Source of the DNA: Blasia pusilla
Taxonomy: Eukaryota
Assembly: GCA_050084515.1 (NCBI GenBank)
Contig: CM114271.1
Location: 11,966,001 to 12,030,000 of the forward strand
Reading direction: 5' to 3'
Length of the DNA: 64,000 nucleotides
Numbering within the stretch: the stretch's first letter is position 1; each line of letters starts with the position of its first letter. The notes under the pieces are model-generated. The model was given only the letters and a program-made list of their open reading frames with translations, was not told where the DNA came from and did not search any database. Of this stretch, positions 13,807-63,154 are shown piece after piece. A program made the position numbers and the translations under genes.

Positions 13807-14125
13807 ACACTATCTTGAGAGTGTGTGAGATTTTGCCATCTGGTGGGACGCGATGGTGATATTGGAGGGACGCGATGGTATGATTTGGAAGGACCATGTG
13901 CGTAACTATGCGTCATGTCACCTTCCTAACATTGACGGTAGAATTGATGTGAGCTTAGCAGTAGTTCCTACATGCTTGCGATGTTTGTTGTGTGGTTTCC
14001 CCCCATGGTGTAGCCACTATGCTAGTCTGTGATGGATGTTCGAGAGGGTGGGATATAGCATGTCTGATGCCACCTCTCACTAGGATTCCTCGGGGACGAT
14101 GGATGTGCTCTAGATATACATAGAG
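13807..14125 (+). pseudogene. Retroelement integrase-tail + PHD finger fragment
   Basis: Translates to ...MLVCDGCSRGWDIACLMPPLTRIPRGRWMC. Homologous to 52350-52657. Confidence 0.7.
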
Positions 14126-14440
14126 TAGGTAGTGATTGATTCTAACGTGTGTTTGTGACATGGATGACAAGAAGGCGACTAACGATGGGGCTACATGAGC
14201 ACCCGGCCTTTTTGCTCTTAGCGTCTTAGAGATGTATGTCATGGTAGGTAGGGATAGATGACTATTTGGAGTTAGAGGGATCTAACCATCAGCTCGGGGG
14301 GCGATTGGAGCTATTTTGTTGCTTATTATCTTCATTTTTGGATGCCATGAGTTAGCATGGGATTGTGCCTGTTTGTGTGTATGTTCGGTGACAGAAATGT
14401 ATGTTGTGTAGCAATGTGTATGCGCAAGACAGTTATGTTG

Positions 14441-14890
14441 TGTCAGGTCTGTTAGGATAGATCAATAAGATCTAGTAGAGCACCGTCGGAGATATTAGAG
14501 GAAAGCCTTGTAAGGTCGAGGATGACCTGTTGAGGGCACGGATAACTTGAAGTTTCCCCTTTATTTCGGCTCATTTGGACCCATATTAATAAACTTACTA
14601 TTTTTGGTAAGTTGCCAAATTTTTTGTATAGTTGATGTTCCACTCTGGGAAGTGGCCCTTGACCCCCTATAGCAAGTCAAGAGCCAAGGAGGTAACTTAC
14701 GAGCATAGGTTACTGTGGAGAGGGCTTGGGAGAGGGAGAGGGAAGGGGATATATCTCCAACAGGAAGAGCTTGAAAGCTCCTTCTCTCTTTGTTGAACCT
14801 CTTGGCATGAGGCGACGTAGCTATGGTCCTCCTTGCCTTGCGTGTGTAATCCAATCCAAGCCTCTCATTAAAAGAGTGGGTTTGGTTTGA

Positions 14891-14957
<67 letters not shown>

Positions 14958-15109
14958 ACATTTGTGAGACCTTGTTATGAATGAGAACCTCCTGATTTAT
15001 TGGAGATATTTTGGTACTTATTGTCTTGATGATTGGATGCCATGAGTTAGCATGGGATTGTGCGTGTCTGTGTGTATGTTTGGTGACAGCGATATATATG
15101 CGCACGATA
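14441..15109 (+). repeat. LTR-like family unit (A-B) containing (GA)n
   Basis: Starts tgtc...taggatagatc...gatctagtagag and ends tgcgcacgata. Homologous to 49942-50566 and 52967-53450. (GA)n at ~14894-14956. Confidence 0.65.
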
Positions 15110-15519: not shown

Positions 15520-21029
<5,510 letters not shown>

Positions 21030-21370
21030 CATACGACTTAAATATATTAAGAGATGGCTTGAATATCCGACCGTAAGAGATATGCATCCTCGTGCAACGA
21101 CATCCCACACCCAAGGACAAGATTTGAGCATAAAGGAAATTATCGATTCGGTTGTCCGACCCTGCAAACTGATTTGGGGACACCGTATTGCTTGTTTTGT
21201 GGCTCCTTGTTTGAAGATTAGTTTGAGTGCCCTTCGGGTACAATCTCTATTTCTTAAGAGGTTTAGGTGATGGAATCATGGGGGGGACCATATCTTTGAT
21301 TACTTTGCGAGTTAGAAATGTCTCAACCTTAGTCTTCCTCATCTCCCTAGTTTCTCATGGTGTCTTAGTT

Positions 21371-36700: not shown

Positions 36701-39700
36701 AATCAAGAGGAACTTGCTGAGTTGAAGAAACAGTTGGATGAACTCCTAGAGAGGGGTTACATCCGAACAAGCAAGTCACCTTATGGGGCACCCGTCCTCT
36801 TTGTAAAGAAGAAGGATGGGAAGTTGAGACTCTGTGTTGATTATCGGGCGCTGAATAAAGTGACGGTAAGGAACAACTATCCTCTACCAAGGATGGATGA
36901 CCTCTTTGATCGATTTTCGGGTGCCAAGTATTTCAGCCGAATTGACCTGAAATCAGGATATTATCAGATTCGGATTGCCGAAGCGGATGTAGAGGAGATT
37001 GCGTGTAGAACGAGATACGGTTCGTTCGAGTTTGTGGTGATGCCTTTTGGTCTTTGTAATGCGCCTCCAACGTTTACCACTTTGATGAACTCCATCTTTC
37101 ATAAGGAGACGGATGAGTTTGTGATCATCTATATAGATGACATACTCATCTATTCGAAAACACTAGAGGAGCACGCTCGACATTTGAAGACAGTGTTTGA
37201 GAAACTTAGGGCGAACAAGTTGTATGCGAATGCGGATAAGAGTGAGTTCGGTTTGACAAAGATCAAGTTCTTGGGGCATGTGGTTAGTGCGGATGGAGTG
37301 AGTCTAGACATGGAGAAGGTAAGCGCGATTGTCGAATGGAACCGCCTTCCACGGTGAAGGGGATGAGAAGGTTCATTGGAGCAGTCCAGTTTTACCGGAC
37401 ATACGTGAAGAACTTTTCAGGAATAGTGAAACCTCTCACGGATTGGACCGCAAAGTTTTCCAATACTACATGGACCGAGGAAGTGGATAAAGCGTTCAAT
37501 CGAGTCAAAGAGATCCTCTCGAGGAACGATTCAAAGCGCCGGAGTTTGACCAACCGTTCGAAGTGCACACGGATGCTAGTGATTTTGCGAATGTTGGTGC
37601 AAAAAGGGAGACCTGTAGCATACGAGAGCAAGAAGCTTAGCGACACCAAAAGGAGATGGCCTACTCATGAGAAAGAGTTGTTTGCGGTGGTTCACTGCTT
37701 GAGGAAGTGGCGTCACTATCTGGGACTTCACAGGACTCGAGTATTCACCGATAACATATCGCTCAAGTATTTTGAGACCCAGGATCGCGTACCGCCAAAG
37801 CAACTTCGGTGGCATGATACCTTGGCGTTGATGAATGTGGAGCTAATCCACAAGCCGGGGAAAGACAATGTCATTCCAGATGCGTTAAGTCGCAGGGATG
37901 AGCACATGCCATCGACGACACAAGTGTTGAGAGCAATGTTCCCTAATGAAACAAACCTGGAAAGAAGGATTCGTGAAGGATACGCAAGCGAGGGAGTACC
38001 TTGGGAAGTTAAAGCGGGGCGAGAAGGTGGCCAATCTGAGTTTGAGACACGGCTTGCTGAGGTTTAAGCAGAGCAGGATCTATGTAGGCCAAGGCAAGCT
38101 ACAGACCAAGGTGTTTGTGGAATGTCATGATGGACCTTTGGCGGGACACAAAGGGGAGAAATCCACTCTTGCTGTTTTGACCAAAAGGTTCTTCTGGCCC
38201 AACATGAAGGAAGATGTTGCTCAATATGTGAAAACATGCGTGACCTGTCAAGCGAACCGCGTTTCTTATGCGAAGAAACAATGCTTACTTCATCCTTTTC
38301 CAATCCCGAAGGGACCCTTGCAAAGCATTAGCATGGATTTCATTACGAGTCTTCCGGAATCTGAGGGATACAACGCTATACTTGTGATAGTTGATCGGTT
38401 TAGCAAGTTGGGGAGGTTTGTGCCGACGAGAGAGTCTGCAACGGCCTACACGACTTCCCGACTATTCCTGGATGGTTGGTGGCGAGCGCACGGATTGCCT
38501 AGGAGCATTGTGTCCGATCGAGATCCAAATTTTACCAATGCCTTTTGGAAACATCTATTCATGAGGTTCCGGATCAAACTCAGCTTTAGTATGGCCTTCC
38601 ATCCTCAAACGGATGGGCAAACAAAAAATTAAACTCGGTCGTAAACCAATACTTACGGAATTACGTGAGTGCAGACCAAAGAGATTGGGCCAAGTGGTTA
38701 AGTATGGCTGAGTATTGTTACAACTCGACTAAGCATTCTGCAACCGGAGAATCTCCGTTTCTTCTGGCGTATCAAAGAGAACCAAAAGGGCCTCTTGACT
38801 TAGCTCTTTTGAAGGGCGCTACATCGACACACACTCGTCAAGCAACGGCGGAATGTTTGTTAGTGGAAATGCAGGAACGACAAGAGCGAGCGAGGAAAAG
38901 TCTCGCCAAGGCTCAACTAAGGTACGTGAAGCATGCTAACAAAAGTCGGCGCCAAGTGAGTTTCCAAGTTGGGAAACAAGTGTGGTTGAGTGTAAAGAAT
39001 CTCACTCTTCCGAAGGAATTGTCCGCGAAATTTTCAGCCAAGTATGTTGGACCGTATGTGATCAAGGCAAAGCGGTTTGAGGATGTGTACACATTGGAGC
39101 TGCCAAACGAGTTCAAGATTCACCCGACTTTCCAGGTGTCATTATTGAAGAAGTGTCTTCAAGACAATGTGCGTCCGGAGCGAAGGAGGATGTTGAGACC
39201 ACAACCGGTCATCAGAAATGAGAAACCAGAGTTCGAGGTTGAGACCATTGTGCGTTCCAGACGTAGAGCCACCAAGTACGAGTACTTGGTCAAGTGGAAA
39301 GGCAACCATGTGAAAGAGGCGACTTGGATTGCGGAGGCGGATCTTGAACACGAGCAAGAAGCATTGCGTGACTTCAGATGGATGCAAGAAAGGCACGTGC
39401 GTTAGTACATTGTGAAGCAATGGACATAACTTGTGACCGGAAAGCTTGGGCCGATAACCCGTTGTAACTAGAAATGTTTTGTTGTTGCAATAAAGAAGAC
39501 ATGGATTTGGAGATTCGATGCTTGTATTGTAATTTTGAGTTTGGTTTGTGCAAGGCAATGAGTAGTTCTTCATATGCTTAGGGTGTAAGTTAAGGAGACC
39601 AAACAATGAGTATTTGAGGTGAGAGCTTGTATTCATATAAGGCATCTAGATCAGGACCAAATGTTGAAGTACTAGCATTTGGGCTTGCCCTAACGTCGGC

Positions 39701-41128
39701 GGGGCAGATGAGTCTGTCTTGGGGTTTGTGATGATCTCATTCATGTTGCATGACTGAACTTAGTGATGCGCCTAGGTGGAGTACAAGTGACCCAAAAGTA
39801 GTACGAGTTGGCTAGGTAGACAGGCGGTTGTTTACAAATAGTGAGTGAAGTGTTAGGTTGCAAACTTAGTGAGCTTATTTTGATAGTTAGATTAGTTCAA
39901 CAGAACTAGTCTAGGCTCATCAAAAAGAAGAAGCTAATAAGTCTAAGTGCTGCAAGTGACAACCTAAGACTTAAGCCAAAAGAGGAATTGCGGGTTAGCT
40001 ACCAGAACGCGATTCAGTGTTAAGGGGTCGGCTTCCCAGAACTTAACATTAATAAGGTTTGCGTTGATGAGGACATCAACCTTCTAAGGAGGGGTGAGTG
40101 TCGCGACCCTCGTAACCAAACAACACCAAATAGGCGCCAAGCGAAACATCAAAACTCAAAGGAACTCACGCTGCGAGGTTTGCGCTTTGGAGAGGCGTTT
40201 GGATAAGTCCCTTGGAAACGTCTAAGGGACGAAACGCGGAACAGAGTTGTGCGTTTCATGCGTTATTGTTCGCGACCAGGAAACCTAGACCAAATGCAAG
40301 CCAAGACTTGAGATTAGTTGAGTCTTGGGAGGTTGGTTGCCAAAGAGGTGAGAACCAGTTTGGAACACGACTAGCGTTTGGGAGAATCTGACTGTGTTTA
40401 GGACCATAGCGTTGAGCTCCAAGATGCGTTTGGGACAAGTAAGGGTGCGTTGGAAAGCTGATCTTGAGACGCTTTGGACGCACAAAGATCTCAACAAATG
40501 CATAAGTACACGCTGAGATATTGGCCAAAAACGATTGAAAGAGCAATCGGATTGAGGGCCAATTGGAGAGGCCCGGGTGTCCTTCCCTAAATGTAGGGGG
40601 CCCTCGGAGATCCCTAGAAGTACTAGTAAGGGAGGGCCCTCTCCAAGATGTCTCGGGAAACGAATCCCCACTTTGGGCGCCAAACGGCGTTTCAAAGGCA
40701 TGGGATGGAACGGGAGTTTGGCGTTGGAACTCGAAACCCACACCTGATCCAAGGGAGTGGACTTTGTACGCCACACTTGGATTCCAACCCAAGATTCACT
40801 TCGTGCGAGTCTTGGTGAGGAACTCATTGGATGTCCATCGGACAGTTGGAACCGCTAGGCGCGAAACGCCGTTTCAGGTTCTTGAACCGACCAGAAAGTC
40901 TGTCCCAAGTCTTTCGAGATTTTCCCGTATTGGAAACCGTGAAACTAGGAAGGTTGAGCTTGATGAGAGTCCGAGATGAGAACTCGGAAAGTAATCCCGC
41001 TGATTGATCCAAGACCCGACTAACCGAAGTGCGTGTTTGGATGCAGATCAGCGTTGAGAGCGTGACCTACTGAACGCACGCTTCCGCAACAAACAAGATT
41101 AACGTTCAAGGAGAGTAGGCGCACGACA
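33721..41128 (+). mobile_element. Complete Ty3/Gypsy chromovirus LTR retrotransposon
   Basis: LTRs 33721-34750 and 40099-41128 (1030 bp each, TG...CA). TSD TCTTT on both sides. PBS tgatatcagagc (tRNA-iMet-like) at 34753. PPT aaggaggggtgag at 40086-40098. Confidence 0.96.
34901..39405 (+). pseudogene. Gypsy gag-pol (Gag, Zn knuckle, PR, RT, RNase H, IN, chromodomain) with frameshifts
   Basis: [30 protein letters not shown] and DDE integrase; chromodomain EFEVETIV...YLVKWKG...ATW. Frame breaks near 37340, 37520, 37985 and 38630. Confidence 0.95.
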
Positions 41129-43429: not shown

Positions 43430-44813
43430 TATGCCCTCACTCACTAAGTAAGGGCATGTTAGATAGAGATAGAGCATGCGCTTCTATTAAGCCATAGCAC
43501 ACACATGATGGAGTCGGTTTGGTTCACGTCAAGAGAGAGAAAGGGGTTTTTAGAGGGACGTCATTGTCTACAAAGCATTGAAAATTGAGCGGAGTTGCAA
43601 GAGTTTTGAAAGTTGACTACATGGATTCCAAAGGGGTTGAGCTAAAAGAGAACTGTATGGTGGGAAAATAAGATCTTGAGTAGATCATGAGCAAGCAAGC
43701 TTGAGCTAAGACATTGATTGTATACCATGTGGGTTACATTAATGAGGTTAGATTATGATAGTGATTTGCGAAAAACCCCTCAAAACATAAAGACTATCTC
43801 TTTTCCTTTCCTACCTCTTCTTAGACATAATATGTTTTGGCTATAGTAGGGCAGAAATCCCCTTCAAGTTCAAACTTGGACATGCAAAGAGGCCTAGCGG
43901 CTATGCATCTATAACCAAAATTTGGGGTTGTTGAAATCATATCTCTACTTCTAAAACTTTAAAAGAAGACCCAAATAGGATCTTCCTCTAAACCATATAT
44001 TAGGGGGTAGTCTCATGAATACTTGGAAGATTAAATCTAAAATGGATTGCATAAATAGCTAGATTACAACTTCAATTGAGAAGTGGGTGCCTTATACACA
44101 AGAACATGCAAATACATAGGAAAATGTGGTTGAAACCAAGATGTAGGACTATGGAGATTGGTTCTTGGAGCATCCTCCACACCAATGCACTTCTCCTCCT
44201 TAGTTGATGAAGGCACCAAAAAAGGTTTATGTCTATAGGAGCAAATCTCAATACAAATTTCCTTAAAGGGTAGGAGGAGATGTGAACAAAAAAATAGAAA
44301 ATAGATCTAGGATTCTAAAGTTTTCTTGTAAGGGAGGGGGCAACAAAAGAGACCATTGCATGCTAAGGCGAGATGGAAGGGGCATCACAATAGGAGCATG
44401 CCAACTAATCAACCAACATATATACACCGTAAGAAAGCCAACACACCAAGGTCAAGTCAAATCATTAAGATCACAATTAACTTAACCATAATTAACAATA
44501 ACATATAAGAAATGACTAATAAACCAATTGAAGTGAGAGACTTTTAACCATGGTAAACTTCCAACCATAGTTTGTACAAACATTCTGAGAAGGCTAAAAC
44601 TTTGATTTTCTGAGAAAAAGAGAATTTTAGTAGTATCAAGAGAGAAGAAGGGGCGTTTAGAGACGTTGTTACTCACAAACTCTAGAAGTCCTTCCATACA
44701 ACTCGTCAGAATCCGACATATTGCAAGAAATGAAAACCAAAGAGAAAGTTAGAAGAGAGGAGAGTCTCTCTTCCATCGCAACCTATTGGAATATCACATG
44801 TTGCAAATGAATA

Positions 44814-45251
44814 TGTCACATCTCTTATGATAGATCAACGAGTTTTGGTAGAGCACCTTCAAGGAGATTGGAGAAAAGCCTCAAAATATCAAGGATAACC
44901 TCTTGAGGCCTCAGGCAAATTCAGAGAGCAGGTTTCCCCTTCATTTTTGATCATTTGGCATTATATAGAGAAACTTGCTATTTCATGTAACTTTCTATCA
45001 CAAGTATAATTGGCTTTCCACTTTGGAAAGTAGCCTTTGATCCCCTACATTAGGTCAAGAGCCAAGGAGGTCATCTACGACCATAGTTAGCATAGAGGGA
45101 AGAGGATATACCCAAAGAGAGGGAGCTCCGAAGCTCATTCTCTCTTTGTTGAACCTCTTGGCATAAGGCGGGGGAGCTTTGGTCCTTTTTGTCTTATGCA
45201 TAACCCAATCATCTCATTAGGAGAGGGGGTTTGGTTTGACATGAGAGAGAG
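44814..45251 (+). repeat. Truncated copy of the LTR-like family (A part)
   Basis: tgtcacatctcttatgatagatc...gtcaagagccaaggagg...ttctctctttgttgaacctcttggcat...ggtttgaca. Confidence 0.6.
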
Positions 45252-46969
45252 GATTGGAATTTTTGTGCATATTTTGAGTAATCTTGACTCAGAAGGAGAG
45301 AATGAGAGATCAATTGTGTTATTTTTTATGCAAATTTTAGTATAGGGGAGAGGCGTACTAAAACGCTGCTTTATTTTGGATAGGATTTGGGTATGAAGGT
45401 AGAGTTCTCCATTCTTGGGCTCTTGGGCAAATTTTTCCACTCTGGGTTTGTTGGATTCCATTTGAAGAGGTAATAGTTTTTTTAAAAGAAATCGGCACGA
45501 AAGTATTGCCAATTTTTTCATAAGAGTTGAGGCTGCAAGCTGCACGAAAATTGCCACCAATTTCAAATGAAATGTTGGATGAAGGACCTAGTTTAATGAC
45601 ATTGTAGATCGAGAAGTCATGCAGATTGTCAAAGAAATGGTGCGCAATTATGACACCTAAGCACAAAATTGTGGGCAATTTTTGTGGGTTGCCATAGCCA
45701 TCGAGTGAGTGAAATTTCACTCACTCGGTGAAGTAAAATCAGGTCTTGTTAGTGAAAGGTAAGTGGAAAGGCTTTTCTTAGAGGCCTTAAGGTGAAACCA
45801 TATTTTTGGAGGATTTACCGCATGTGTGGGGGACTATGTTGGGACAAAGTTCAAGTTGGGATTGGGTTTGGAGTTTAGATCCAAATTTCCCAAGGATTGT
45901 TGGAGTAAAGTTAGAAAGAAAAATAGGTTGGGGGATGTGCGTTCCACCCAGCCCTCATGGCTATCTTGAAGGCCCTACTAACCACCATATGTCCTTGATC
46001 GTTAGCCTTGCCTTGCTTGGGAAAAATCTTGTTAGCCTTCTGTAATGGCGGACGTTGCTCTTATCGCATTTTAACTTCCACCCCATTTTACCCGGTTGTA
46101 GTTGCAACTTGATAGCCTTGTCCGGTAGGGCCCGTCCAAAACTACGACTTGACTGGTTGATTAATCCATGTCCTTTTTGTCCATTTCATTACGGCCTTTA
46201 CATGTGGGAGTAGTTTATGGACCCTCTTCAAGATTGCTCATTTTTGTCTAATCTCGTTGCACCTATCTAGGTGGCGAATAGGGACATCCTCACCTTCCAA
46301 TAGAGATATGGGCTTCCATCTATCTCGATACGCTCATGTCACGTGTCCTCCTTATTATTGCTACTTATTGCTAGATAGTATGTTTTTACTTTTGGTAGCC
46401 TGAGCACCACTTTGGGTGGCGCTTAGGCTAGCATCGATATAATTTCCTATGTGTTGCAACTTTCATGCTTTATCATTCACTCATGTTGTTCTCGTGGTTG
46501 TAAATGAAGTTGTTGGCTACTATGAAAGTTTTTTTTTCATGTCAAACAAAAACCATTTTTCCTTGTACATCATATGCATCTACATCAACATCTAGATTTC
46601 ACACGGCTACTTGCCTTTTTCCATTTCCATCTCGGATTCATGGAAGCTTGGATTCACGATTCATGATCTGTGTGTATTATCAAATTTGTACCATATATAC
46701 AAGCTTGTTATGTCTCCCTTGATGTCTCCTTGCATGTTCTCTTGAATCCGTCAAGTGAGTCTCTTTCTATGATTCTCACGCTCATTTCACACGTTTGTGT
46801 TTTATGCACTTCACGTGGAATTGTTACTTTTTTCCCCTTCTTCTCTTACTTGCTTGCTCAAGCTTAGCTAACTGATGCGGGTCCAATCAATAAGTGAGGA
46901 AATCTAGTTGTTGCTTTGTACACAAAGTCGTCGCCCTCGCATCTCATCTAATAGTGTTCAATATTTAAC

Positions 46970-47852
46970 CTCCTGCAAGTGTCTCAAGATCCTCATCATC
47001 TCCCAAAAAAACCTGCACCGAGTGTCAGCTAATCTGCTACCTCGTCCAACACTCGATTGGCCCTGACATGGCCAACCAGTAGTGACCAAATCTATGGCCC
47101 CTACCCGCTCTAAGTCCTGCGCCCTGAGCAATGAAATGTCCCTTGGTAGGAAACTCTAGAATCCATGTACGACGGACGCAGACAACAAGTCGAGAAATCG
47201 AAGGTGTTAAGTGTGCTACATGGTGAAGTGATGTGCGCCTCGCAACATCATCAATCTCAACATACAAGTAGTGTTGCACACTCACTCATGCTTGCAAAAC
47301 AACAGCTAATCCAATGTTGATCCCTCCAAAGAGATCCAAGACATGAATACCCTCCTCTGGGATGCGCCACACAATTGGTGTGGTGTCCAAGGGGGTCATA
47401 GTAGAACTCACGGCTACCTCGGGTTCCTCTAACCCGTCACGCTCTGGTGCAAACGCCCCACTCCATACCATTTGCATGTGCTTATATGCCAAGCGTCGGA
47501 GCTCCTTACTCGAGCCCCACAACGGCACCTCTCCTCCACGGAATGATGCGGCTATCATAACAAACCTCTTCCTAGAAGTATCAGGCGCGGGGATGTCCTC
47601 GGCATGGACATGCCCCTCAATCAAATCACTAAGCCATGTGATGGCGTTGCAGAATGTTGCTAATTGTCGCCATCTTTCATGGCCGTTGCTCGATCCCTCC
47701 ACCCTTGAATCGAACGGGAAATGAGCTAAGTCGCCCATCACCTGACTGCCATCATGGTCTGTAGGACACTGACTCGTCCCAATAATCCAGAGAAAATCCC
47801 ATCGGGTATAATATTGCTCCATCAACCAAGACGTCGAAAGACTTGGCATCAA
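46970..47852 (-). pseudogene. Retroelement pol fragment: protease C-terminus followed by C5 DNA methyltransferase motifs I-V
   Basis: Manual translation: FDVLVDGAILYPMGFSLDYW (retropepsin-like end, ~47780-47840); VLDLFGGI (motif I); YVEID (motif II); IDLVTTGWPCQG (motif IV, 47060-47095); RLADTRCRFF. Frameshifted. Confidence 0.8.
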
Positions 47853-49061
47853 TTAACTTTTCAAATTTTTTCAAATTTATTAATATTTATTTTTATCTAT
47901 TAGAATATTAAATAAATTATTAATTGATCAGTATTTTTTTTTTCTATTCCACTCAGATCCCTATCCATTTCTACCCCATGTAATATGGCTCAAACAACAC
48001 AATTCAAACATGTCATATTATCATTATTTTATCATATTATGTCGGTATCTTGTCGTATTATGGATACGGCCCATACGGGGTCGCCAATAGTTATATACAT
48101 TTAGAAAATATGAATTTTTTTTCCAAAATTTGATTTCATAATTTTCAAATTATTTTTAATATTTTAATGATTAAATCATTCCACTTCTTCTACTTTTAAC
48201 TTTAATATATGCCCATTGGGGAAATTTTCAAAATATAATTTTTGGATATTCATTATTTTATAAAATAATGAATAAAAAAATCCTTATATTAAGTATAAGT
48301 TCAAGATGTTCGAATATATGTAAAAAAAATTAAATATAATAAATATAATAATTAAATTTATATCAAAAAAACCTTTCAATTATTGTACCTTGCACGTTAT
48401 CCATTTCATGAACTCACTTCATGGAAAACATTCATGATTGGCTCACATTCACAAATCTCCTAAGTGAAATATTCTGAAATATTATGAAAATTTACTTACA
48501 ACAAATGAGTAGTTTCCCAACAAATATTTGGATTGAGAGGAACCTACTACTTATGTACATTAAAAAAATAAAAATATAAACTTATTCTATCTAATCTAAT
48601 TCCAAATATATGTAACACTGGTGCGGACGTCTCACAAACTCTTCCTCCTCTTCCCCTAGCTCTAGTCACGCGTGTCCCACCTCCACAAGGAATAGTCCTC
48701 TCCAACTCAACATCGGCTTCACCATCATCTTTTTCTTGTGTTGGCTCTGTCGGAAACATCTCACACTCTCTCTCCAAGAATCCAAAAAGTTCCTCCTGCA
48801 TTCGACGAGGGTAATGGTATGTTTGAGGATATCCCACTTCTGTCCTTTGATGAATATCTTGCCATAAGAAAGGTGGCAAGATCAATTGAGTCTCCTCAAA
48901 ATAAGGTCATCCACTAATGGATTTTGATGATGGTTTAGCACAAGTTGTCGAGTTGTGTTGAGGGCGTCTCGGACTTCATGTGGATTCAACCCCCGAGTGA
49001 AGAAGAATTTTTATACCTCTCAATTTTGGACATCTATGGCTTTTCTGTGGATGAGTTCCCC

Positions 49062-50700
49062 TCAATCGTACATGTTAATGAAGCAGACCAGCCACGCTAG
49101 CATTACCCGATCAATCCTCTGTTGACGAAGGATTTTTGCGTGAACCACCCTATCTATGTTCACTTTGGGGTTATAGTTCGATCGGGGGCTACGATGTTCC
49201 AAACTGAAAGTGAAATTGTCTTGCTCTTGGGTTCGCTTGTGATATGTAGGTGGTGCATTGCTATCAAGAGCACAGAAAGATATGCCAAAAAGGTGATAGA
49301 GTCTTCCTGACCAAACTTGTCTACAAGTTGGACACTTGTGAGATTGTAGCATGGCCTTTTGAAGACAATATGGATGCCAATAATAAGCTTTACATGTGTC
49401 TTTCACGCAGCAACCTTCTACAATAATGGGGTTGAAGCAAATCATGCATTAGGGCCAGTTGTTTGGCGTTAGGGCCCCTCCTTCACTTACTACGATTTCC
49501 TTCATCCAATCCGGAAGATCTTGCACTTGTGTGCTCAAATTTAGAGGTGTTCGGGCCAACATCATAGAGGCACAGTTGGTTGGCAGCGTTTGGATCTATG
49601 AGATTGTCCCATGCTACGCGTAGAGTTGGAGGCCACAACTGCTCCATAGGTTGAAATAAGATCATATCAACCTCCTTCACAAGACGAACCTCAAGTAGAG
49701 TTGTCTCGGAAGTGAGTTCTTCCACGTTACCCTTTGCTCTCCATCGCAACAATTCATCCATCTCTTATTTTTGTCTTGCCATGATGTTTTTATATGCTCT
49801 CCTCCACTGCTCTATGTGGTCAACCATTACAACTCTTAGCCTTCTATCGAGGTCATCTTTGGTAATAGATTCGTTCAAAAGCCTCTCCATCTCTCTCTTC
49901 AATCCGTTGTACTCCTCAGATAATTGTTCATACTTCCCCTTTGTCATATCTTTTAGGATAGATTAGTGAGATCTAGTAGAGTGCCTTTGTGAGTAGTGGA
50001 GGACATGCTCAGTAGGTTGAGGATGACCTGCTCAGGCCCCGGGAAACCTGAGAGAGCAGGTTTCCCCTTCGTTTCGGCTCATTTGGAGCCATATTTAGGA
50101 ACTTACTATTTTAGGTAAGTACCATTTTGAGTATATGATCGACTTTTTTTTTTTAAGTGGCCCTTGACCTCCTACATGAGGTCAAGAGCCAAGGAGGTGA
50201 CCATGGAGCATAGGTTACTATGGAGAGAGCTTGGGAGAGGGGAGGGGTATACCTCAAGAAGAGAGAGCTTGAGAGCTCATTCTCTCTTTGTTGAACCTCT
50301 TGGCATGAGGCGGCGGAGGTATGGTCTTGCTTGCCTTGTGTCCGTAATCCAAGCCTCTCATTAGGAGAGTGGGTTTGGTTTGACATTGAGAGATACATAT
50401 GAGAGTGCACACATGTGAGAACTATAGTGTTGTGAGAGAGATTTGATCTTATTTTATTGGAGATATTTTGGTACTTCTTGTCTCGTTGTTTAGATGCTAT
50501 GAGTTAGCATGGGATCATGCGTGTTTGTGTGTGTGTTCGATGACAGCGATGTGTATGCGCACGACACCTTCAAAACGTTGAATTCCGCGGCCAAATCAAA
50601 ATTGCATTGGGAATGTGTTTTTAAACTCTCCAACTGTGATAGACGAGGCATTACCTCTTGACACCAATGTTGGACTCGTCTTGGTTCTCTCCCGCTCTCG
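49062..50700 (-). pseudogene. Coiled-coil + RING-finger coding remnant interrupted by a solo LTR
   Basis: CMIC...C...HPYC...CPTC at 49310-49450. Heptad-like segment continues in frame across the insertion (AEFNVLK-GKYEQL). In-frame stops present. Confidence 0.5.
49942..50566 (+). mobile_element. Solo LTR (625 bp) with 4-bp TSD CCTT
   Basis: TGTC...GCGCACGACA flanked by cctt on both sides. Removing it restores the reading frame of the interrupted ORF. Confidence 0.8.
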
Positions 50701-52099
50701 ATGGCCCAGCCCCACTAGACATTTCCCTCAGATGAAGAAGATAAAAAAGTATTTTAAAAGAACAAGTGAAATAAATATACGGGTTAAGATAAGAAAATAC
50801 CGAAAAGATAATGACGCGAGATGCTATAAACATGGCTCAGAATGTATGGGCACATGAATGATGGAACGACCGTCTCGCTTTAGGGTTGGGCACTCAAATG
50901 GAATATATAGATATGGGCATTTCTAGATATGTTTCGTTGACGACTTCCACATCCCCAATGTGCTAAGGAGAACCAATGAAACAAATCTAAAAATTTGAGT
51001 CTATGAATCGAAAATTTCAAAATCACCAAACAAGTTCAGTAATACGAGAGATACTTGTGTTAGAGTATCGAGTAATACTCATCTAATATGGAATCAATCG
51101 GAGTTTCTTTAGGATGCAACAAGGAGCGAAAATATCCAAGTTGGTCCAAAATAAAATCCAAGTACCCCCAAAAGGCACCCAAGGGATTTTCCCAAAATTC
51201 CTAGTAACCTTGGAAGCCCTTAGTTTTCAAGGCACTGATGAAATTTGGAGCCTGATCCAAAATGTCACCCAAAAAAGGATAAAACATGAGAAAAATAGGG
51301 ATAAGTGGATTAATTAACCCCATATCCCCTTGTTTTATTCATTTTGGGGGCCAATTGCTTGCCCTTGCCTTATGGGTTTTACCCAAAAGGGGGAGGGGAG
51401 GGGAAGGGAGGATAGGGCAAAGTTTGAACTTGGCCCCTGCCAATCAAAGCCCGCCATGTGTCCCCGCGGGGTTCGCAGGAGGCGGGCTCCACGTCAGCTC
51501 TTCCGATTGGCGAGATGACAACAAGCTAGAGCGGGAGCAATGGTGGCTACGGTGGGGGCAAAAGTGAGCACGCTATGGAGCGGTGCCATGTGGCGCCATC
51601 CAATTGGCGGAGATCACGGCGGGCTCACGGGCGGACTCGCAGCCCGCCTACATTGATGCGGGCTTGCGGGGGGACTAGCGGCGGGTTGGCTCGCACTTGG
51701 AGGGGTAGGCTCCTGGGCCCACATACGGGCTATGATGTGGGCCCAACTTATTCGCGACGTGGGCTTGACAAAAAAATAGGTGTCGGGCGTGATGCGCACT
51801 GGCCGATTGAGCAAGGATGGAATGCTCGGGATGCGCGGGGCCAGATGAGGGCTGCGGGCACACCTCAAGGGCACATGGGCCTATAGAGCTCGCATCCAGG
51901 CCCGCACGGACATGTCCATCCTGGAGATGGATATACGTCCGCGGACACAGATTTTGTCCGCGTGGAACCTTGTTAGGACCTCTTGTTGCCGTGGTTGGCG
52001 AAGAAATACAGATTCAACACGCATGCCTGGTTAGCGTCTTTCTCACTGTTTTTGTTGCTTTATGGTCGAGAACCGGATTTACATGTGGTCATTTGTCGA

Positions 52100-52657
52100 G
52101 ATGCTGGTGAGGTGTTGGACCTTGATGATCTTAATACATGGATGCGAGCATATTCTTAGAGGCCTAAGTTGATTTGGAGAGTGATGCCCATGGCGTTTGA
52201 GAACTTGATGATTGCACATCATCGGGATACCTTGAGGTATGCGACTATTCAGGGAGGTGGTTTTCGACCTACTATCCGGAGGTTTCATCAGGGAGACTAT
52301 GTCTACTTGCAGCAAACAGCATACACGACGTTGGATGTGACTACAAGGCGCACTATCTTGAGAGTGCGTGAGGTTTTGCCATCAAGTTTTCTCTTATTGG
52401 AGGGACACGGTGGTATGGTTTGGAAGGACCATGTGCATAACTCTACGCCATGCCACCTTCCTAACATTGACGATACAGTTGATCTGATCTTAACATTAGT
52501 TCCTACAGGCTTGCAATGTATGTTGTGTGGTTTCGCCTATGGTGCAACTACTATGCTAGTTTGTGATGGATGTTCGAGAGGATGGCATATGGTATGTCTG
52601 ACATCACCTCTCATGAAGGTTCCCTGGGGACAATGGATGTGCCCCAAATGTACATAG
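52100..52657 (+). pseudogene. Gypsy-type integrase C-terminal region fused to a PHD finger
   Basis: MPMAFENLMIAHHRDTLRYA...FHQGDYVYL (integrase tail), then CMLC...MLVCDGCSRGWHMVCLTSPLMKVPWGQWMCPKC (C4HC3 PHD). Confidence 0.8.
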
Positions 52658-52966
52658 AGTAGATAGTGATAGATTTCAACTTGCATTTGTGACATGGATG
52701 ACAAGAAGTCGACTTACAATGGGGCCACATGAGCACCCGGCCTTTTTGCTCTTAGCGTCTTAGAGATGTATGTCATGGTAGGTAAGGATAGATGGCTATA
52801 TGGAGTTAGAAGGAGCTAATCACTAGCTAGGGGCTGATTGAAGATATTTTGATGCTTCTCGTCTCGATGTTTGGATGCCACGAGTTAGCATGGGATTGTG
52901 CGTATTTTTATGTATGTTTGGTGACAAGGATGTATGTTGTGTACTGATGTGTATACGCACGACAAT

Positions 52967-53285
52967 TGTTACATGTGTTTGGATAGATCTACGAGATCTA
53001 GTAGAGCGTATTTGGAGATACAAGAGGATAGCCTTAGGAGGTCAAGGATGACCTGTTGAGGCCATGGGTAATCTGAGAGAGTAGGTTTCCCCTTTGTTTC
53101 ACCTTATTTGGAGCCATACATATAAACTTACTATTTTGGGTAAGTTTCCATTTAGAATATAATTGTCTTTATACTTTGGGAAGTAGCCCTAGATCCACTA
53201 CAGCAGGTCAAGAGCCAAGGAGCCAAGAGGTGCAAGAATTGGCTACTGTGGAGAGAGCTTGGGAGAAGGAAGGGGATATACCTCC

Positions 53286-53358
<73 letters not shown>

Positions 53359-53450
53359 TGTTGATGGAGAGATCCACTTGATCGTTCTTGTTTGTGTGTT
53401 TGTTCAGTGATAGTGATGTATGTTGTATAGCGATGTGTGTACACATGACA
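52967..53450 (+). repeat. LTR-like family unit with (GA)n, downstream of the PHD region
   Basis: Homologous to 49942-50566. (GA)n at ~53290-53355. Confidence 0.65.
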
Positions 53451-53454
53451 TACT

Positions 53455-54330
53455 TCTTTAGCAGTTTTCTACATGGTATCACAATGATATGAGAATATCA
53501 ATTGAAATTTGTGATGCTTGAGGAGAGAAGAGAGTCAAGCGAAGGCACAATTCTAGTTTGGGAGAAGGAAATTTATTTCAATCAGAGCTCAGTGGCAGAA
53601 GATTCCAAGTGGAGCAATAACGGTGACAAAACTTTATAGACATTTTTAGGGATTTCCCAATTGATTTAGAAATTTGGGTCCGCATAGATAACAATGACAC
53701 AAAAGGTTAGAACTGATCCTGTTATAGATCTCGTCAAGAGCTTTAACGCATCCAAAATCATTTTGATTCTGACATTATGAGCTTTTGCAATAGCAATTTC
53801 AATGTAGGAAAGTGCAACTAGTGAAGGAAAGTTATGTAGTTTGCTCTCTATAAGCCAATTTTGACTAACTTTCTTACATACAATTGGTCAAATTTGGAAA
53901 ATTTCAGGTCAAATGTTTGTGGAATTGATCTCTATCTCAATTAGAATAGTGGAGAGACTAAAATTATATTTCGTGAGTAAAATGATTCATAACTGATTCC
54001 TCAGCAACAATCATAAGCAAGAAGCTAGATAAGTAAAATTATAACATATGGAAACTTCGCATGAAACAATTTCTCATTGGTCAAGAATTATGGAAGCTTG
54101 TTACAAGCAATAAGGCCAAACTAGAAGAGGACTCAACAAACTTGAATATTTGCGCTTGGAACAAACGCACAAGGTAAGTAATCCACTATAATTCAATAAG
54201 GATCAACTTGCTTAACGTAATGATTGGTCACATGGAAGATGTTGATACTCTAAAGGAGATATGGATACACTGGAAAAGCTCTAGACATCTACAAAGGCCA
54301 AAAATATTCAATTGAAAAAATAATTGAACG
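53455..54330 (+). mobile_element. Ty1/Copia 5' fragment (LTR end, PBS, gag start)
   Basis: tttagcagttttctaca followed by tggtatca (PBS). NYNIWKLRMKQFLIGQELWKLV at ~54036-54105. Confidence 0.7.
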
Positions 54331-54344
54331 AAGTGAGTAAAGGA

Positions 54345-55971
54345 TCGCAAAACATCTATGGGATAGTCGGAAGATTGGTGTGTCGCTAGACAACTCAATG
54401 CAGATTCTGGACCCTTCCGCATACCCAAATTTTGCATGCTAAATTCAAAATAGCTCCTATAACTCCTAAGGAACAAATGTATCTGGCACCGCTCTCCTCC
54501 TATCAACTTAGGGCTCATACTTGGCTCCCAAGTCTCCATTATCACTACGGTAGGACTCTCAAGTATGGGTATCGGTGGTTGCTATGGTGCGACCCTATCT
54601 CAGACAACAAGACTCGACTGCTCCCTAGAGCCAATTGCAAACTCTCATCTCCTCCAGATGTAGTATCGGGCACCACGCTCGATGTTGTGACGATCATCTC
54701 TTGGCGTACTTTCAAAACATCCCAAGAAGTCCAAGGGTGTCTCTCCCGATCATCCCTCATATTTCAATCTCCCCGGGTCTTGCCCCTAGCCATTGCCTCA
54801 ACCGTCTCGGTAGGCATGGGCTCACCAATACAACAGCTGTAACTTGTCGTAACCTTATCTGACCTTGCTCAGCAACTCTTAAGTGATGATCCATATCAAA
54901 TAGTTCAAGTTCATCGCCTGAACCAGAATATGACGTCGTGATGCCTCTGATAATGACGGTACTATCGTCACTCCTCTAGGAAATCCCATCGCCCGCTCTT
55001 GCTCATTAGCATTGGGCTCCACCAACCGTTCTACTTGATCATCCCAAACCAAGTTGGGTCCGGCCTCCTTGTGTGCATAGGAAGCAAGGAAACTCACAAA
55101 AGTAAGAAAGATTGCATATGGCATACCAATCTTGTTGACTATAGTCAATAGCGGTTGATCATCGTGTCTCACTGCCTGTGATCAATGACCCGAATCCATG
55201 ATAACATCTATCAACAAATGGGAGGGGTGCTCCACTCTCGCATAAGCCCTCTACAACATCTCGAAGTAGGACCAAGTTGTTCCACTATAAACACGGGTGA
55301 TGAGCTCCTACACTCGTTGCATCCAAGAACACTGTTGGGCAGATCCAGACATACACCTAATGTGCACTCGTCACTACACGTGACCTCGGATCGCCCAAAA
55401 TTGGTACATTCTCCAAGATGTAAGTTGGAGAACGAGACTATTGCGCATGCAAATATCGCAAGATCCTCATTATAGCCCAAAACAACCTGGATCAAAGGTC
55501 AGCTAATCCGCTACCTCGTCTATCACTCCACTGGCCCTAACATGGCCTACTAGCAATGACCAAATCAATGGTCCTAATCCGCTCTAAGTCTTGCACCCCC
55601 ACCTAAAATGTCCCTCGGTAGGAATATCTAGTACCCCTGTACGGCGGACACAGACAAGAAGTTGAGAAAATAGAGGTGTAACAGTGCCATTTGTTGCTTG
55701 ATTTGTTGAAGTAAAATGCACCTCGCAATCTCATCAATGTCAACAAATACTATTGCACGTGCACTCTCGCCTACAAAGCAACAGTCAAAATGCAACCTAG
55801 TGCTAATCTCTCCAAAGAGATCCAACATTCGAATCATCCTCAAGGATGCGCCACACAATGGGTGTGGTGTCCAAAGGTGTCAAAATAGCACTCCCGGGTA
55901 TCTCGGGTTCCTCCGACTCGTCACACTCTGGTGCAAACGTCTCACTCTACGCTGTCTATATGTGTTTATCG
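54345..55971 (-). pseudogene. Retroelement pol fragment: full C5 DNA methyltransferase domain followed by the start of RT
   Basis: MLDLFGEI (I); FVDID (II); IDLVIASRPC*G (IV); YILENV (VI, 55405-55422); DATSVGAHHPCL*WNNL (VIII); EQERAMGFP...RRHILVQAM (IX/X). Then ICIELSSDTPIFRLSHR, typical of the Gypsy RT N-terminus. Confidence 0.85.
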
Positions 55972-57220
55972 TGTAGAAAACTGCTAAAAAAGCATAATTG
56001 GTGGGATACAACTCTCACACTCATATACCACCATGGAGAATAAAATTTTGCACTAAGAGAATGAGTGGTGGCTAGTTCTCTTATCAATTATATAAGATAT
56101 GTACAAGAAATCCTAACCCCAATCATAACCATAGTCTTGAGTTAGACTAACTATGGTTAACTAACCTTAGTTAAAATAATCGCGCTTAGTTGACTAGTCA
56201 AGATTAAGCTCCCCTACTTCGTGTGTGTATCAAATATAGGGAAGCTTAATCTTGACTAGTCATCTAATCACTAGCAGTTTGAGCGTTCGATGAGCTTGAC
56301 TATAACTTAGTCTTCAATACTCCCCTTAAGCTCATATCAATATTTCTAACACCTAAATTGTTTCTTAATATCTCAAACTTTTCTCTAGACAATACCTTTG
56401 TAACGATATCAACAAGTAATTGTTGCGGCCACACCATCTCACGCTGCATTGGTTGCTCCTCAGTACTCACCCTCTGTCGAAGATAAAACAATTGTAGGTT
56501 GCTTCTTTGAAGCCTAACTTATAGATGCGCTTCGTAAGTAAATGAATGAATAACCATATGTGTAGTGTCTATCAAACATGCTTCCTGCACAATCAACATC
56601 TGTGAATCCCTCTAATGGAAACTCGGAGAAGATTCAAATTGAAGCCCGAATTAAACAGAGAAGTTCACATACTGCAACATCCTTCTCACATCATCAAGGT
56701 AAGGTTTTCAAGATGCTTGCATAAATTGGCTCACTAGGCCAATTGTGTAGCTCAAATTTGGTCTAGTTATAGTCAAATAGATCAAACTTCCAACCATGCG
56801 CCTATACATATCAGAATTTGCAAGCAACTCTCCTTCATCCACTCTTAGCTTTACACTCTGGTCCAACGGTGTAGAGATTGGCTTACAAGCCATCATACCA
56901 TATTTTTAAAGTATGTGAAGAGCTGGTTAAGTCATAAATACCTCCTCATATATATAGATCTTCACTCAAGAAGGCATTCTTGACATCCATGTGATGAAAT
57001 TTCCACTTTTTACTTATTACAACTGCAACCAGTATTCTCATAGTCATAATCTTTGCAATAGGGCTAAATATCTCCTCATAATCGATGCCATATTGTTGGG
57101 CATAACCCTTGGCTGCCAATCTGGCTTTGTATCTGTTCACTATACCATCTTGATTGCGCTTGACTTTGTAAACCTATTTACAACCAATAGCTTCCTTACC
57201 GGAAATAATATCAAACAGCT
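55972..57220 (-). mobile_element. Ty1/Copia 3' fragment (RT remnants, PPT, 3' LTR 55972-56319)
   Basis: RYKARLAAKGYAQQYGIDYEEIFSP; HMDVKNAFL; YRRMVGSLIYLTITRP; DIVTKVL; PPT aaggggag; LTR ends ...ttttctaca. Confidence 0.88.
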
Positions 57221-59867: not shown

Positions 59868-62138
59868 ATGGTGAAGTTTGGAAGGTATGCGGCAGTGAGT
59901 GCCGTAGGTGCTTCAGCAGTGATATTCCATGCCTTCAAGAGTAGAGAACAATTCTACCCGGCCATGCTGTATCTGGCTACGTCAAAAATTAGCCTGGTGC
60001 TCTTGTTGAATATGGCTCTTGTGGTAATTTGTGCGATCTGGCAATTGATCAAGGGCATTTTCTTGGGGCCTTTAAGAGAGGTTGAAGTGGAACGCTTGAA
60101 TGAGCAGTTGTGGAGAGAAGTCATGGAGATTTTGTTTGCGATGACTGTTTTCCGGGATGAGTTCAATGTATCGTTCGTCACGACTATCATCGTCCTTCTC
60201 TTTATCAAGGCCTTTCACTGGCTAGCACAGACTAGGGTGGAGTATATTGAGACAACGCCCTCCGTTTCGCGGCTCTCTCATGTACGCATCATCAGCTTCA
60301 TGGCGCTTCTGCTCATTCTGGACTGCGTTCTATTCAATCACTCGTTCTCTAATCTCCTCAAGACCAGACAACCATCAGTCTCCCTTTTTTTTGCGTTCGA
60401 GTAAGAATTGACTCACGTTCACGATTCGAATCCTTCGTTGCCAATTGTCTACTCCTGTACATTGGTCTGTGCACTTGCTGAACGTGTCCCTGAATTAGGG
60501 TTGATGAACTTGATTTTAATGGGCTGGTTCATTTCAAGGCTTTCACATTTTCACGTCTTGTAGTTCTCGACAGCTCTAGCTTGGGGCTTCTTATCTCGAC
60601 CAGCATGCTACGTTTGTGCAAAGTTGAATTTTGCGTAAGATTACATTTCATCTATTCGAGATGCTGATTCAAGTCACGTCCTCCAGATTTAACTTCTGAA
60701 ACTGAGAAAAAATATAGATCTGTATATTTTCTCTGGACTCAATTCTCTCAGACATGAACAGATGTCATTTCTAATACTGTGCAGGTATGTCATACTGGCG
60801 ACTTCCACTATGGCAACATTTGTGAAATATTCTCTATATTTGGGCGACCTATTCATGGAAGGGCAATGGGATAACAAGGCTGTTTATGTTTTCTATCTCG
60901 AGCTTGTGCGAGACCTTCTTCATCTTTCTCTTTATCTTTTCTTCTTCCTCGTCATTTTCATGTAAGAATCATCAGCAAGTACACACCCCAGTTTGGACTA
61001 TTTTTTAATACAATGTTCCTTGATTTCCACTTTTTTCTTTTTAACTTGTTTATGGTTATAAAATCATTCCAAGCCTTGTGGTAGCTGAAACCCGTGAATG
61101 GGGTTGTGTCCTTTGCAGAAATTACGGCTTACCACTCCATTTGGTGCGGGAGCTTTATGAGACATTCCGGAATTTTAAAACACGAGTTGCTGATTTCATT
61201 CGATACAGGAACATAACATCAAATATGAATGACCGTTTTCCTGATGCTACTCCTGAAGAGCTCGGGAGGTAATTCCTAAGATTTCATATGGCAACCAAAA
61301 TGTTGAAACGATGCATTTTTAGGATACCTGTATGTCAATGCACAACTGTGGTTTGATGTGAATTTTTATTTCACAACTTATTTCTTGAATAAGGACTTTT
61401 CTGTTTCTGGACCAATACTTAAACTGCAAGCTCAAAACTTCCTGTGTTGTATGTGGAAGGTCAGTACTCAGAATACAGTATTACAATCTAGTGGGAGATG
61501 ATATTCGTATTTTTTGTAGTTTATGGTGCGGTCCTGAAGTTACTGTGGGCAAAGTTGATGGAATTGGAAATTGGAGATGCAGGAGTGATGCAACTTGTAT
61601 AATTTGTCGGGAAGAGATGTCTACAGCAAAGAAGCTTCCCTGTGGCCATCTCTTTCACATACATTGTTTACGCTCATGGCTAGAGCGCCAGCAGACATGT
61701 CCAACTTGCCGATCATCAGTGCTGGCCTCAGAAGTTACAAGCACTGCTGGAGATCCTGCAGCTCCCCATCCACCCCTACAAGTAGAAGAACATGCCCTTC
61801 AAGGTTTACCCGTTCATCTTTTTCATCCTATCTAACAACAGTTGGATTTTTTAAGCCCTGCATTTGGATTGAAGGTTTGCAAAATCACTTTGATTTGTGC
61901 CAGATCTCAGCAGTGTGATCTTATAATAAAAAGGGGTTTTCTTTGACATTTTACTGGTGGCAGGACAAGGTCATGTTGGTCAGACAGTTGTGACTCAGCT
62001 AAATCGACAAATTCCAGGCCATGGCCCGGGTGGTCCTAGTGTACAGCAGGAAAGACTTTACAATGCAGCGACATCAGCTGCTTCTCAATATCAATCTTCC
62101 TTTGTGTATCCAACAATGAGGACTGACATCACCAATTG
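59868..62138 (+). CDS. HRD1: ERAD E3 ubiquitin ligase HRD1, exons 1-5 (59868-60400, 60785-60961, 61119-61268, 61583-61803, 61964-62138); continues beyond the window
   Basis: QFYPAMLYL, FLGPLREVEVERLNE, LPLHLVRELY, MNDRFPDATPEEL, RING-H2 CIICREEM...LPCGHLFHIHCLRSWLERQQTCPTCR. GT-AG introns keep phase. Confidence 0.93.
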
Positions 62139-63154
62139 GTAAGTGATCACTTCACCCAAATCAGGGGTATGGGTGTTAGAAGATTCAGCTGGATACAGAA
62201 CTATTATCAAGAATACTTGGTAATTAGCTGCTACTTTTTGAATAACTCACAAGATTAGAAATGGAAGAAAGACACCATCTGCTTCCCATCTACTCATCTA
62301 CATCTACTGCTATGGAAAAGAATCCCGTCTTTCTGCAGAGATTCAGGTCTAATGATTTGTAGCAAATCAGAAAACTGAATTTGAGTGCCGTGGGTAGGGC
62401 ACAGCCTTCAATTAAGTTATGTGAGGGCCCTTATCAGATAAGGACAACTATTGTGAGAAGTCTAGTGAGGATATGCCTCTATCTAACCTGTACTGGTTAG
62501 TGAAAGTTATTTGGTAGAACCAAGCACTCTCTTCCAGCTAGTTTCGTGTTCTCAATTTTAAAAAGGGGAGGTTGTCACATAATCTGTGTCTAGAGCTTTG
62601 AGATCTGATACGTATTCTATCCTCTCAAGCTATGCATCTGTAATGAACTTCTACCGATTTCTAAACCATGAGTTCGTTCTCGCCTATTTGCTCTTCACTC
62701 CCCCTACCTAAGCACATAGAGGGGAGATTAGTATATTGAGTGAAGCACTGCCCTGGGTAGAGCCCCATGATGGCAAAATAGCAACGAATGAGGGAAAACT
62801 CGACTGATGAGGTCTAAGACATGATCAGTGTCAAGTGGGAGATCATTGAGATCCAGTGGATAACACCAACTGATCACACCAAACTCTTGCCACTATGTCA
62901 GGAAAAAAATGAGGCAGTGTGACAAGGAAAGACTACAAGCAGCTATCTCACACAATCTATCGAGGTTACACCTCACTTGAAAGTAGCATCCATCATAAAC
63001 CAGTTCTCTGAATTGGAAGCAAAATGGGAAAGTTTCCAGGCCACCCAGACGTTGGTCTAGAATACAATGATGCAAGCATCAAGAGAAGAACAAGGCAGAT
63101 GGATGTCCAGCAAGGAATGGAAACTCCTCGAATGAACTGCCCATAAGACAACCA

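Follow-up and report, generated by a model that had tools for sequence, protein, structure and literature searches.

What is a cytosine-5 DNA methyltransferase (DNMT) doing in degenerate transposon DNA of a liverwort? The question is raised by a 64,000-nucleotide stretch of the Blasia pusilla genome (assembly GCA_050084515.1, contig CM114271.1, positions 11,966,001 to 12,030,000 of the forward strand), which we call the window and whose positions are counted from its first letter. A preliminary description of the window had placed methyltransferase motifs on the minus strand, directly upstream of a reverse transcriptase (RT), within what it took to be a retrotransposon. Here, we report that the minus-strand segment from 55969 to 54355 is very probably (probability about 0.9) what is left of a Ty3/gypsy-type retrotransposon with a Dnmt3-type cytosine-5 DNA methyltransferase in its polyprotein, truncated and now dead. 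We refer to this segment as copy 1; protein relatives are numbered with P and related genomic loci with L.

54355–55969, minus strand: copy 1, a decayed Gypsy-DNMT3 fragment consisting of linker, DNMT, tail of the first open reading frame (ORF1), stop and N-terminus of pol (tblastn with P0075, P0080, P0015 and P0029; tblastx with L040).
54858–55828, minus strand: Dnmt3-type cytosine-5 methyltransferase domain of copy 1, in three pieces (frames -1, -2 and -3) with nine in-frame stops.
54710–54817, minus strand: ORF1 tail after the DNMT ('...HPWTSWD...'), matching residues 1218-1245 of P0075 and 223-258 of P0015.
54582–54584, minus strand: in-frame TAG between ORF1 (gag, protease (PR) and DNMT) and ORF2 (RT, RNase H (RH), integrase (IN) and PHD finger), followed by CAA CCA (comparison with related loci).
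54355–54575, minus strand: N-terminus of pol and first residues of the RT region ('ETWEP...YFEFSMQNLG...IELSSDTPIFR'), with one frame change (tblastx).

The DNMT-like signal in copy 1 is real and far beyond chance. In tblastn, P0075 (Mp_4g09160 of Marchantia polymorpha) matches copy 1 in five collinear pieces from 55901 to 54710 with 39-59% identity and a summed E of 2e-63, and the Calypogeia fissa protein P0015 matches it at about 50% identity (E 6e-50). The frame of copy 1, searched with HMMER against 1.84 billion proteins, gave 53 matches at E ≤ 1e-3, nine of them at ≤ 1e-10, with the DNMT part only. Alignment with the relatives places motifs I, II, IV, VI, VIII, IX and X in canonical, non-permuted order: motifs I and II in a single minus frame (55828-55607), motif IV, ENV and motif VIII in a second one (55602-55270), and 'ERAMGFP...RRHILVQAMNLN' in a third (55262-54858). 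The canonical order had been read by the preliminary description across stops and frameshifts, and both the P0075 search and the motif alignment bear it out. The same is true of the RT-like N-terminus that it had noticed downstream: the translation from 54575 to 54355 ('ETWEPSMSPKLIGGERCQIHLFLRSYRSYFEFSMQNLG...IELSSDTPIFRLSHR') matches L004, L006, L007, L040 and other related loci with 50-57% amino acid identity (tblastx, E 5e-17), and the segment matched in these loci lies between DNMT and RT and continues into the RT match. Compared with proteins, this N-terminus gives a weak match to residues 1381-1406 of P0095 (E 0.08).

Copy 1 is broken off at both ends; its upstream limit is taken from the homology with a second copy and its downstream limit from tblastx against related loci, where homology ends at about 54355. 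The P0075 pieces run in frames -3, -1, -2, -3 and -1, i.e., through four frame changes, and the alignment crosses ten in-frame stops. Motif IV is interrupted (PC-stop-G), and motif VIII lacks its R-x-R, ENV being retained. Given the frame changes and stops, the gene is dead, as had been supposed, and copy 1 is an inert relic today.

The second copy lies on the same strand and keeps a part of the element which copy 1 has lost.

46970–47856, minus strand: copy 2, consisting of a protease C-terminus (47856-47707), a linker and the N-terminal half of the DNMT (tblastn with P0075 and P0029; Pfam PF00145).

Self-comparison aligns 46974-47463 of copy 2 with 55448-55947 of copy 1 at 75.8% identity over 508 bp. 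P0075 matches copy 2 with E 2e-66, and copy 2 is collinear with residues 1095-1415 of P0029 (E 1e-38). Its motifs are cleaner (I, LDLFGGINIGL; II, VEIDD; IV, GWPCQG, intact), and the decay amounts to two frame changes and three stops before the copy breaks off within the DNMT at 46970. When broken frames were read with X at the stops, copy 2 alone exceeded the PF00145 cut-off of 22 bits (27 bits, E 3.9e-6). The end of a retroviral-type protease, 64% identical to P0075, sits directly upstream of the DNMT linker (47856-47707). Because this protease end stands upstream of the DNMT in copy 2 and the pol N-terminus downstream of it in copy 1, both collinear with the relatives, the DNMT belongs to one polyprotein with retroelement parts, in agreement with the earlier claim of an intronless, retrotransposon-borne DNMT upstream of RT. 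The base changes between the two copies (89 transitions and 68 transversions over 581 aligned bases) and their CpG observed/expected ratios (0.67-0.70, compared with 0.65 for the whole window) show nothing distinctive. Below copy 2 (44000-46960), no further element parts were found; an RNase H-like word, 'IIHTDHES', occurs in this interval.

Where, then, does such a polyprotein exist in intact form? Six named relatives come from Marchantia polymorpha (Mp_4g09160, Mp_8g17980, MARPO_0063s0090, MARPO_0204s0011, MARPO_0020s0163 and MARPO_0024s0079), all of gag-PR-DNMT build; the other named ones are one Calypogeia fissa protein and Mesostigma viride proteins. Among the protein matches obtained with the window DNMT and its relatives, there was no named Klebsormidium protein. 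Domain arrangements were counted over 54 relatives of at least 600 amino acids: in 29, the DNMT follows PR and/or precedes RT, 23 of these being gag-PR-DNMT frames that end after the DNMT; in 20, it is located between RNase H and integrase or directly before integrase; five show DNMT only. Pfam coordinates bear out both arrangements as well as a C-terminal PHD finger, e.g., the order PR, DNMT, RVT_1, RNase H, integrase and PHD in P0095, and nine of the ten relatives tested pass the PF00145 cut-off. A scan of metagenome contigs gave 59 related loci, and the layout was examined in the 25 of at least 7 kb: DNMT then RT in 14, RT-RH-DNMT-IN in six, and too little to tell in five. L001 is uninterrupted, with gag-PR-DNMT in ORF1 (1006-5085) and RT-RH-IN-PHD in ORF2 (5098-8229), in the same frame.

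The second arrangement, RT-RH-DNMT-IN-PHD, is seen in L027-L030, L032 and L034 and in P0098 and P0100-P0116, without stops in the matched parts. L032 has, in addition, a 3.5-kb direct repeat (1-3498 and 6557-10057, 99.9% identity) that includes RT-RH, from either tandem elements or an assembly artefact.

RT precedes integrase in the relatives, and the integrase is of the retroviral/Ty3 type, its best PDB matches being prototype foamy virus (PFV) integrase (6e-30) and Ty3 Gag-Pol (7q5b, 1.7e-27). The PHD finger is closest in the PDB to those of CHD4, KDM5, PHF12, PHF21A, AIRE and UHRF1. A quick maximum-likelihood tree was made from 56 DNMT domains, i.e., the 54 relatives and the two window copies (X at breaks), all family members and without outgroup. 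Copies 1 and 2 are sisters (SH-aLRT 88) in a clade with the six Marchantia proteins (99), and the RH-DNMT-IN type forms one group (83). The land-plant setting to which the preliminary description had drawn attention holds good, as the element resides in a liverwort and Marchantia polymorpha has the family among its annotated proteins, without a name of its own.

Between the DNMT tail and the pol N-terminus, 30 of the 59 loci carry a single in-frame stop (23 TAG and seven TAA), as does the window; in L001, it is located at 5083-5085. The following codons at the 30 loci are CAA CCC in 27, CAG TTA in two and CAA CCT in one, i.e., Q-P or Q-L. Three subclades have the ORF1/ORF2 stop in common, and in all nine ORF1-type proteins checked, the end comes 101-207 residues past motif IX. 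The single PR-DNMT-RT-RH-IN frame anticipated for intact copies is thereby refined: the DNMT ends the gag-PR frame and a conserved stop precedes RT. Tobamoviruses and other plant viruses have leaky stops in the context UAG CAR-YYA, and gammaretroviruses express pol by stop-codon read-through. This family resembles both in having one in-frame UAG or UAA between an upstream and a downstream frame; its stop differs in coming after PR-DNMT and not after gag. The conserved position and context of the stop suggest that pol is made by read-through.

From the uninterrupted relatives, the family layout is repeat A, gag (CCHC), protease, DNMT, in-frame stop, RT, RNase H, integrase, PHD finger and B-A-B. 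In L006, L040 and L049, the element is flanked by a pair of A repeats (307-344 bp) that are 90-94% identical; B (about 105-111 nt) precedes the 3' A and occurs again right after it, with 95% identity in L040 (10245-10349 and 10692-10797) and 93% in L049, and no B was found next to the 5' A in L040 or L049. The repeat order is A-coding-B-A-B, i.e., split direct repeats, on an element with a DDE integrase. The family had been described as one with long terminal repeats (LTRs); it is indeed Gypsy-type with terminal repeats, but these are split and not plain LTRs. Please note that A-coding-B-A-B is otherwise typical of tyrosine-recombinase (DIRS-like) elements. The window holds the following further pieces of this lineage.

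51977–52654, plus strand: integrase C-terminus and PHD finger, opposite in orientation to copy 1; 61% amino acid identity to L040 over 226 residues.
52837–53450, plus strand: repeats after that PHD finger, i.e., B (52837-52933), A (52966-53304), (GA)n and B' (53380-53450).
13847–15097, plus strand: a second PHD end (13847-14111), then B (14304-14400), A (14441-14929) and B (14999-15097), by homology to L040 and P0095.
44814–45251, plus strand: solitary repeat A, 70-73% identical to other A copies.
49942–50564, plus strand: repeat A then B (50456-50552), with no coding part (repeat comparison).
20550–21031, minus strand: solitary repeat A, inverted (repeat comparison).

The segment 51977-52654 is also 42% identical to residues 2120-2345 of P0095 and matches Pfam PHD with E 2e-8, and the two B copies of the 13847-15097 block are 89% identical over 91 nt. 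Judging from these pieces, whose IN/PHD ends have DNMT-bearing elements as their nearest relatives, many members of the lineage were formerly present in the genome. Inside repeat A of the terminal-repeat block at 52.9 kb, there is a long (GA)n microsatellite (53288-53357).

How would an element of this build work? Gag-PR-DNMT would be the main translation product, and RT-RH-IN-PHD would arise from occasional UAG read-through; CAA CCA after the stop fits the CAR-YYA context. If Gag-PR-DNMT is the main product, the DNMT would travel with Gag, and it may, whether cleaved off by the protease or remaining linked to Gag, act on the new DNA copy of the element or on the chromatin of the insertion site. 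Insertion may be steered by the PHD finger of the integrase, which would read histone H3 tails, like the chromodomain in chromoviruses; these likewise have a chromatin-reader module fused to the integrase end, a chromodomain where the window lineage has a predicted reader PHD finger instead. A broader picture, to which we give slightly less than even odds, is that a single old Gypsy-type lineage with split repeats carries an "epigenetic kit" (a Dnmt3 domain on Gag-PR and a PHD reader on integrase) and expresses pol by UAG read-through, that it has persisted from early streptophyte algae (Mesostigma, Klebsormidium) into Marchantiopsida and Jungermanniopsida liverworts, and that its DNMT has moved once between two polyprotein positions.

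Several observations weigh against our reading of copy 1 and its family. PF00145, the profile named in the preliminary description as a check, matches copy 1 alone in one of three minus frames, with E 0.0023 and 17.9 bits, under the cut-off that copy 2 exceeds. A phmmer search of the PDB with the three single frames of copy 1 gave no DNMT match, and a word-based protein search with its C-terminal open reading frame scored 0 of 95 candidates. Nowhere in the 64-kb window is there a complete element, a gag or an RT core of the DNMT family, and the IN-PHD fragments, which are on the opposite strand to copy 1, are separate insertions. As to clean LTR ends (TG...CA) with a target-site duplication, the terminal repeats read TGTCATGACC...TTTTCA, homology extends a few bases past them, and there is no matching flanking duplication in L040 or L049; a search of the window for the LTR start word TGTCATGACC gave no meaningful match. 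The 30 stop-bearing loci are many near-copies from a few samples and so amount to few independent witnesses, and P0095 and P0099 are fused without a stop. Finally, the Dnmt3 domain of the Gypsy element of Klebsormidium produced no methylation in yeast, a result that its authors call inconclusive (PMC5890265).

Could the two window copies be halves of one old local duplication of about 8.3-8.5 kb and, as such, no independent evidence for a multi-copy family? The DNMT copies are spaced by 8474-8484 bp, close to the 8153 bp between the A repeats at 44814 and 52967, in the same order and orientation, and the copies are sisters in the DNMT tree. We nevertheless consider this origin unlikely: just the 508 bp are common to both, their flanks are unrelated on both sides, and each copy retains a different part of the element. 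Since repeat A occurs at six places in the window, a single matching spacing may be chance, and the family status depends on relatives elsewhere anyway.

Is the DNMT of the live family an enzyme at all? All 25 PDB matches of the Marchantia protein P0080 are DNMT3A/B/C, and the family profile matches DNMT3A at 2.9e-24, DNMT3B/3C at about 2e-21 and plant DRM at 4e-14, with no DNMT1-type or bacterial enzyme among the 60 PDB matches listed for it. By this comparison, the element methyltransferase is assigned to the Dnmt3 class, with a motif order that is not rearranged. Every one of the 54 relatives retains the catalytic Cys as well as the E of ENV, and the two arginines of R-x-R are found in 52 and 54 of them, respectively. 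The domain might still be no working methyltransferase in the live family, i.e., a binding or targeting module or one carried without benefit, which would fit the lack of methylation in yeast by the Klebsormidium domain and the replacements in P0080, where the first arginine of motif VIII is exchanged for H and the G of motif X for D. We think this improbable, given that Cys, ENV and R-x-R are retained in 52-54 of 54 relatives across two domain arrangements; the Klebsormidium study also reports purifying selection on the Klebsormidium copies and CG methylation in yeast by the Dnmt3 domain of the dinoflagellate element SymbioDIRS (PMC5890265).

That a host DNMT3 gene gave rise to the DNMT-like stretch, as a processed pseudogene or a fragment lying among transposon debris by accident, would agree with copy 1 being intronless, dead and of the Dnmt3 class found in the host gene; such an origin is highly improbable in view of the protease end upstream in copy 2 and the pol N-terminus downstream in copy 1, collinear with single-frame gag-PR-DNMT-RT-RH-IN-PHD relatives, and of the position of both copies within a clade of gag-PR-DNMT proteins in the tree, which holds family members only. 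Similarly, we give almost no credence to the view that DNMT and RT start became adjacent by nesting of separate elements and never belonged to one, for although Copia and Gypsy pieces on both strands are patched together around copy 1, related loci show the same order and spacing of DNMT tail and pol N-terminus and share even the in-frame stop that separates the two.

How does a Gypsy-type DNMT element in a liverwort relate to known systems? KnitGypsy-Dnmt3 of Klebsormidium nitens was described by de Mendoza et al. in 2018 (PMC5890265), and the later name for the kind is "streptophyte Gypsy-DNMT3" (PMC12344493; bioRxiv 10.64898/2026.05.21.726589). According to the published account, the Klebsormidium element shares with the window family an intronless, non-rearranged Dnmt3-type domain inside a Gypsy-type polyprotein, a streptophyte host and the repeat order A-coding-B-A-B, which is given in the Fig. 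4c legend (PMC5890265); it differs in its host, an alga, from the liverwort, a land plant, considered here, and the two are likened by published description and not by sequence. The likeness to the Klebsormidium element suggested by the preliminary description thus holds as far as a Dnmt3-like family of the published kind is concerned. The term "PHD" does not occur in the main text of PMC5890265. SymbioDIRS-Dnmt3 and SymbioLINE-Dnmt of Symbiodinium, as described there, are also retrotransposons that carry a cytosine-5 DNMT, with two domain orders within one family, and SymbioDIRS-Dnmt3 has the Dnmt3 class in common with the window family; their backbones are DIRS (tyrosine recombinase) or LINE in a dinoflagellate, whereas the window family is of the Ty3/gypsy type with a DDE integrase (PMC5890265). 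Host DNMT3 and DRM enzymes share the catalytic fold class and motif set, DNMT3A being the best solved relative; in contrast to them, the element domain has no PWWP, ADD or UBA companions, reads GWPCQG in motif IV, is embedded in gag-PR and is not rearranged like DRM.

The window family is therefore of a published kind, streptophyte Gypsy-DNMT3, in a new host group, i.e., a land plant. No published liverwort or Marchantia copies were found in the literature covered, which comprised the 2018 paper and papers citing it but not their supplements. Since Marchantia and Mesostigma family proteins are in EukProt, sequences from these genera may already be in the supplementary trees of PMC5890265 and PMC12344493.

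The surroundings of copy 1 belong to other elements, two of which lie beyond its breaks.

54037–54177, plus strand: Copia-type gag start (DUF4219, Pfam E 2e-8), at the 3' break of copy 1 and outside the DNMT element.
56946–57173, minus strand: Copia-type RT (RVT_2, Pfam E 2.3e-20), beyond the 5' break of copy 1 and outside the DNMT element.

A 17-nt word is common to 53457-53473 and 55972-55988 in inverted orientation (E only 0.002 within the window), and in 53457-53490 it is followed, at 53479, by TGGTATCA, which we take to be the start of a tRNA-Met-type primer-binding site. The two sites may mark where Copia LTRs end on either side of copy 1. The DNA separating copy 1 from the Copia RT fragment contains an 82-bp near-perfect palindrome (56186-56267, arms 93.5% matched).

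Elsewhere in the window, a young-looking Gypsy element occupies 33721-41128 on the plus strand, with LTRs at 33721-34750 and 40099-41128 (97% identical), RT at 36629-37893 and integrase at 38144-38800; it matches neither DNMT nor PHD and shares only 25-35% identity with the DNMT lineage. The segments 944-4298 and 4299-7945, next to each other and about 3.4-3.6 kb long, are 81-82% identical and represent a tandem duplication or tandem elements. Between two A repeats, an open frame at 49062-49448 on the minus strand resembles a RING-type zinc finger (zf-RING_2, E 1.9e-4, under the cut-off) and adjoins coiled-coil-like frames at 49483-49962. A host gene with introns for an HRD1/synoviolin-type E3 ubiquitin ligase of endoplasmic-reticulum-associated degradation lies at 59868-62142 on the plus strand; in its first exon (59868-60401), identity is highest with Marchantia polymorpha (96%), followed by two Riccia species (95% and 94%) and Calypogeia (87%), and is at most 80% with other plants, which places the window in a liverwort of the Marchantiopsida that is not M. 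polymorpha.

What does the finding mean? Retrotransposons that carry the kind of enzyme with which their hosts silence them are rare, and the streptophyte case had rested on one alga, for which attempts to show activity were unsuccessful. Land plants, too, acquired such elements: the window host belongs to the Marchantiopsida, and there are relatives in Marchantia polymorpha and Calypogeia fissa. Some liverwort entries annotated as "DNA (cytosine-5)-methyltransferase" or "hypothetical protein" are, then, transposon genes and not host methylation machinery. The conserved stop puts the DNMT on the presumably abundant Gag side and so narrows the possible mechanisms, and liverworts are a tractable host for asking what the methyltransferase of an element does. 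If the single-lineage reading is true, the copies in Marchantia polymorpha, a transformable model, with all catalytic motifs would make the function of a transposon-borne DNMT directly testable.

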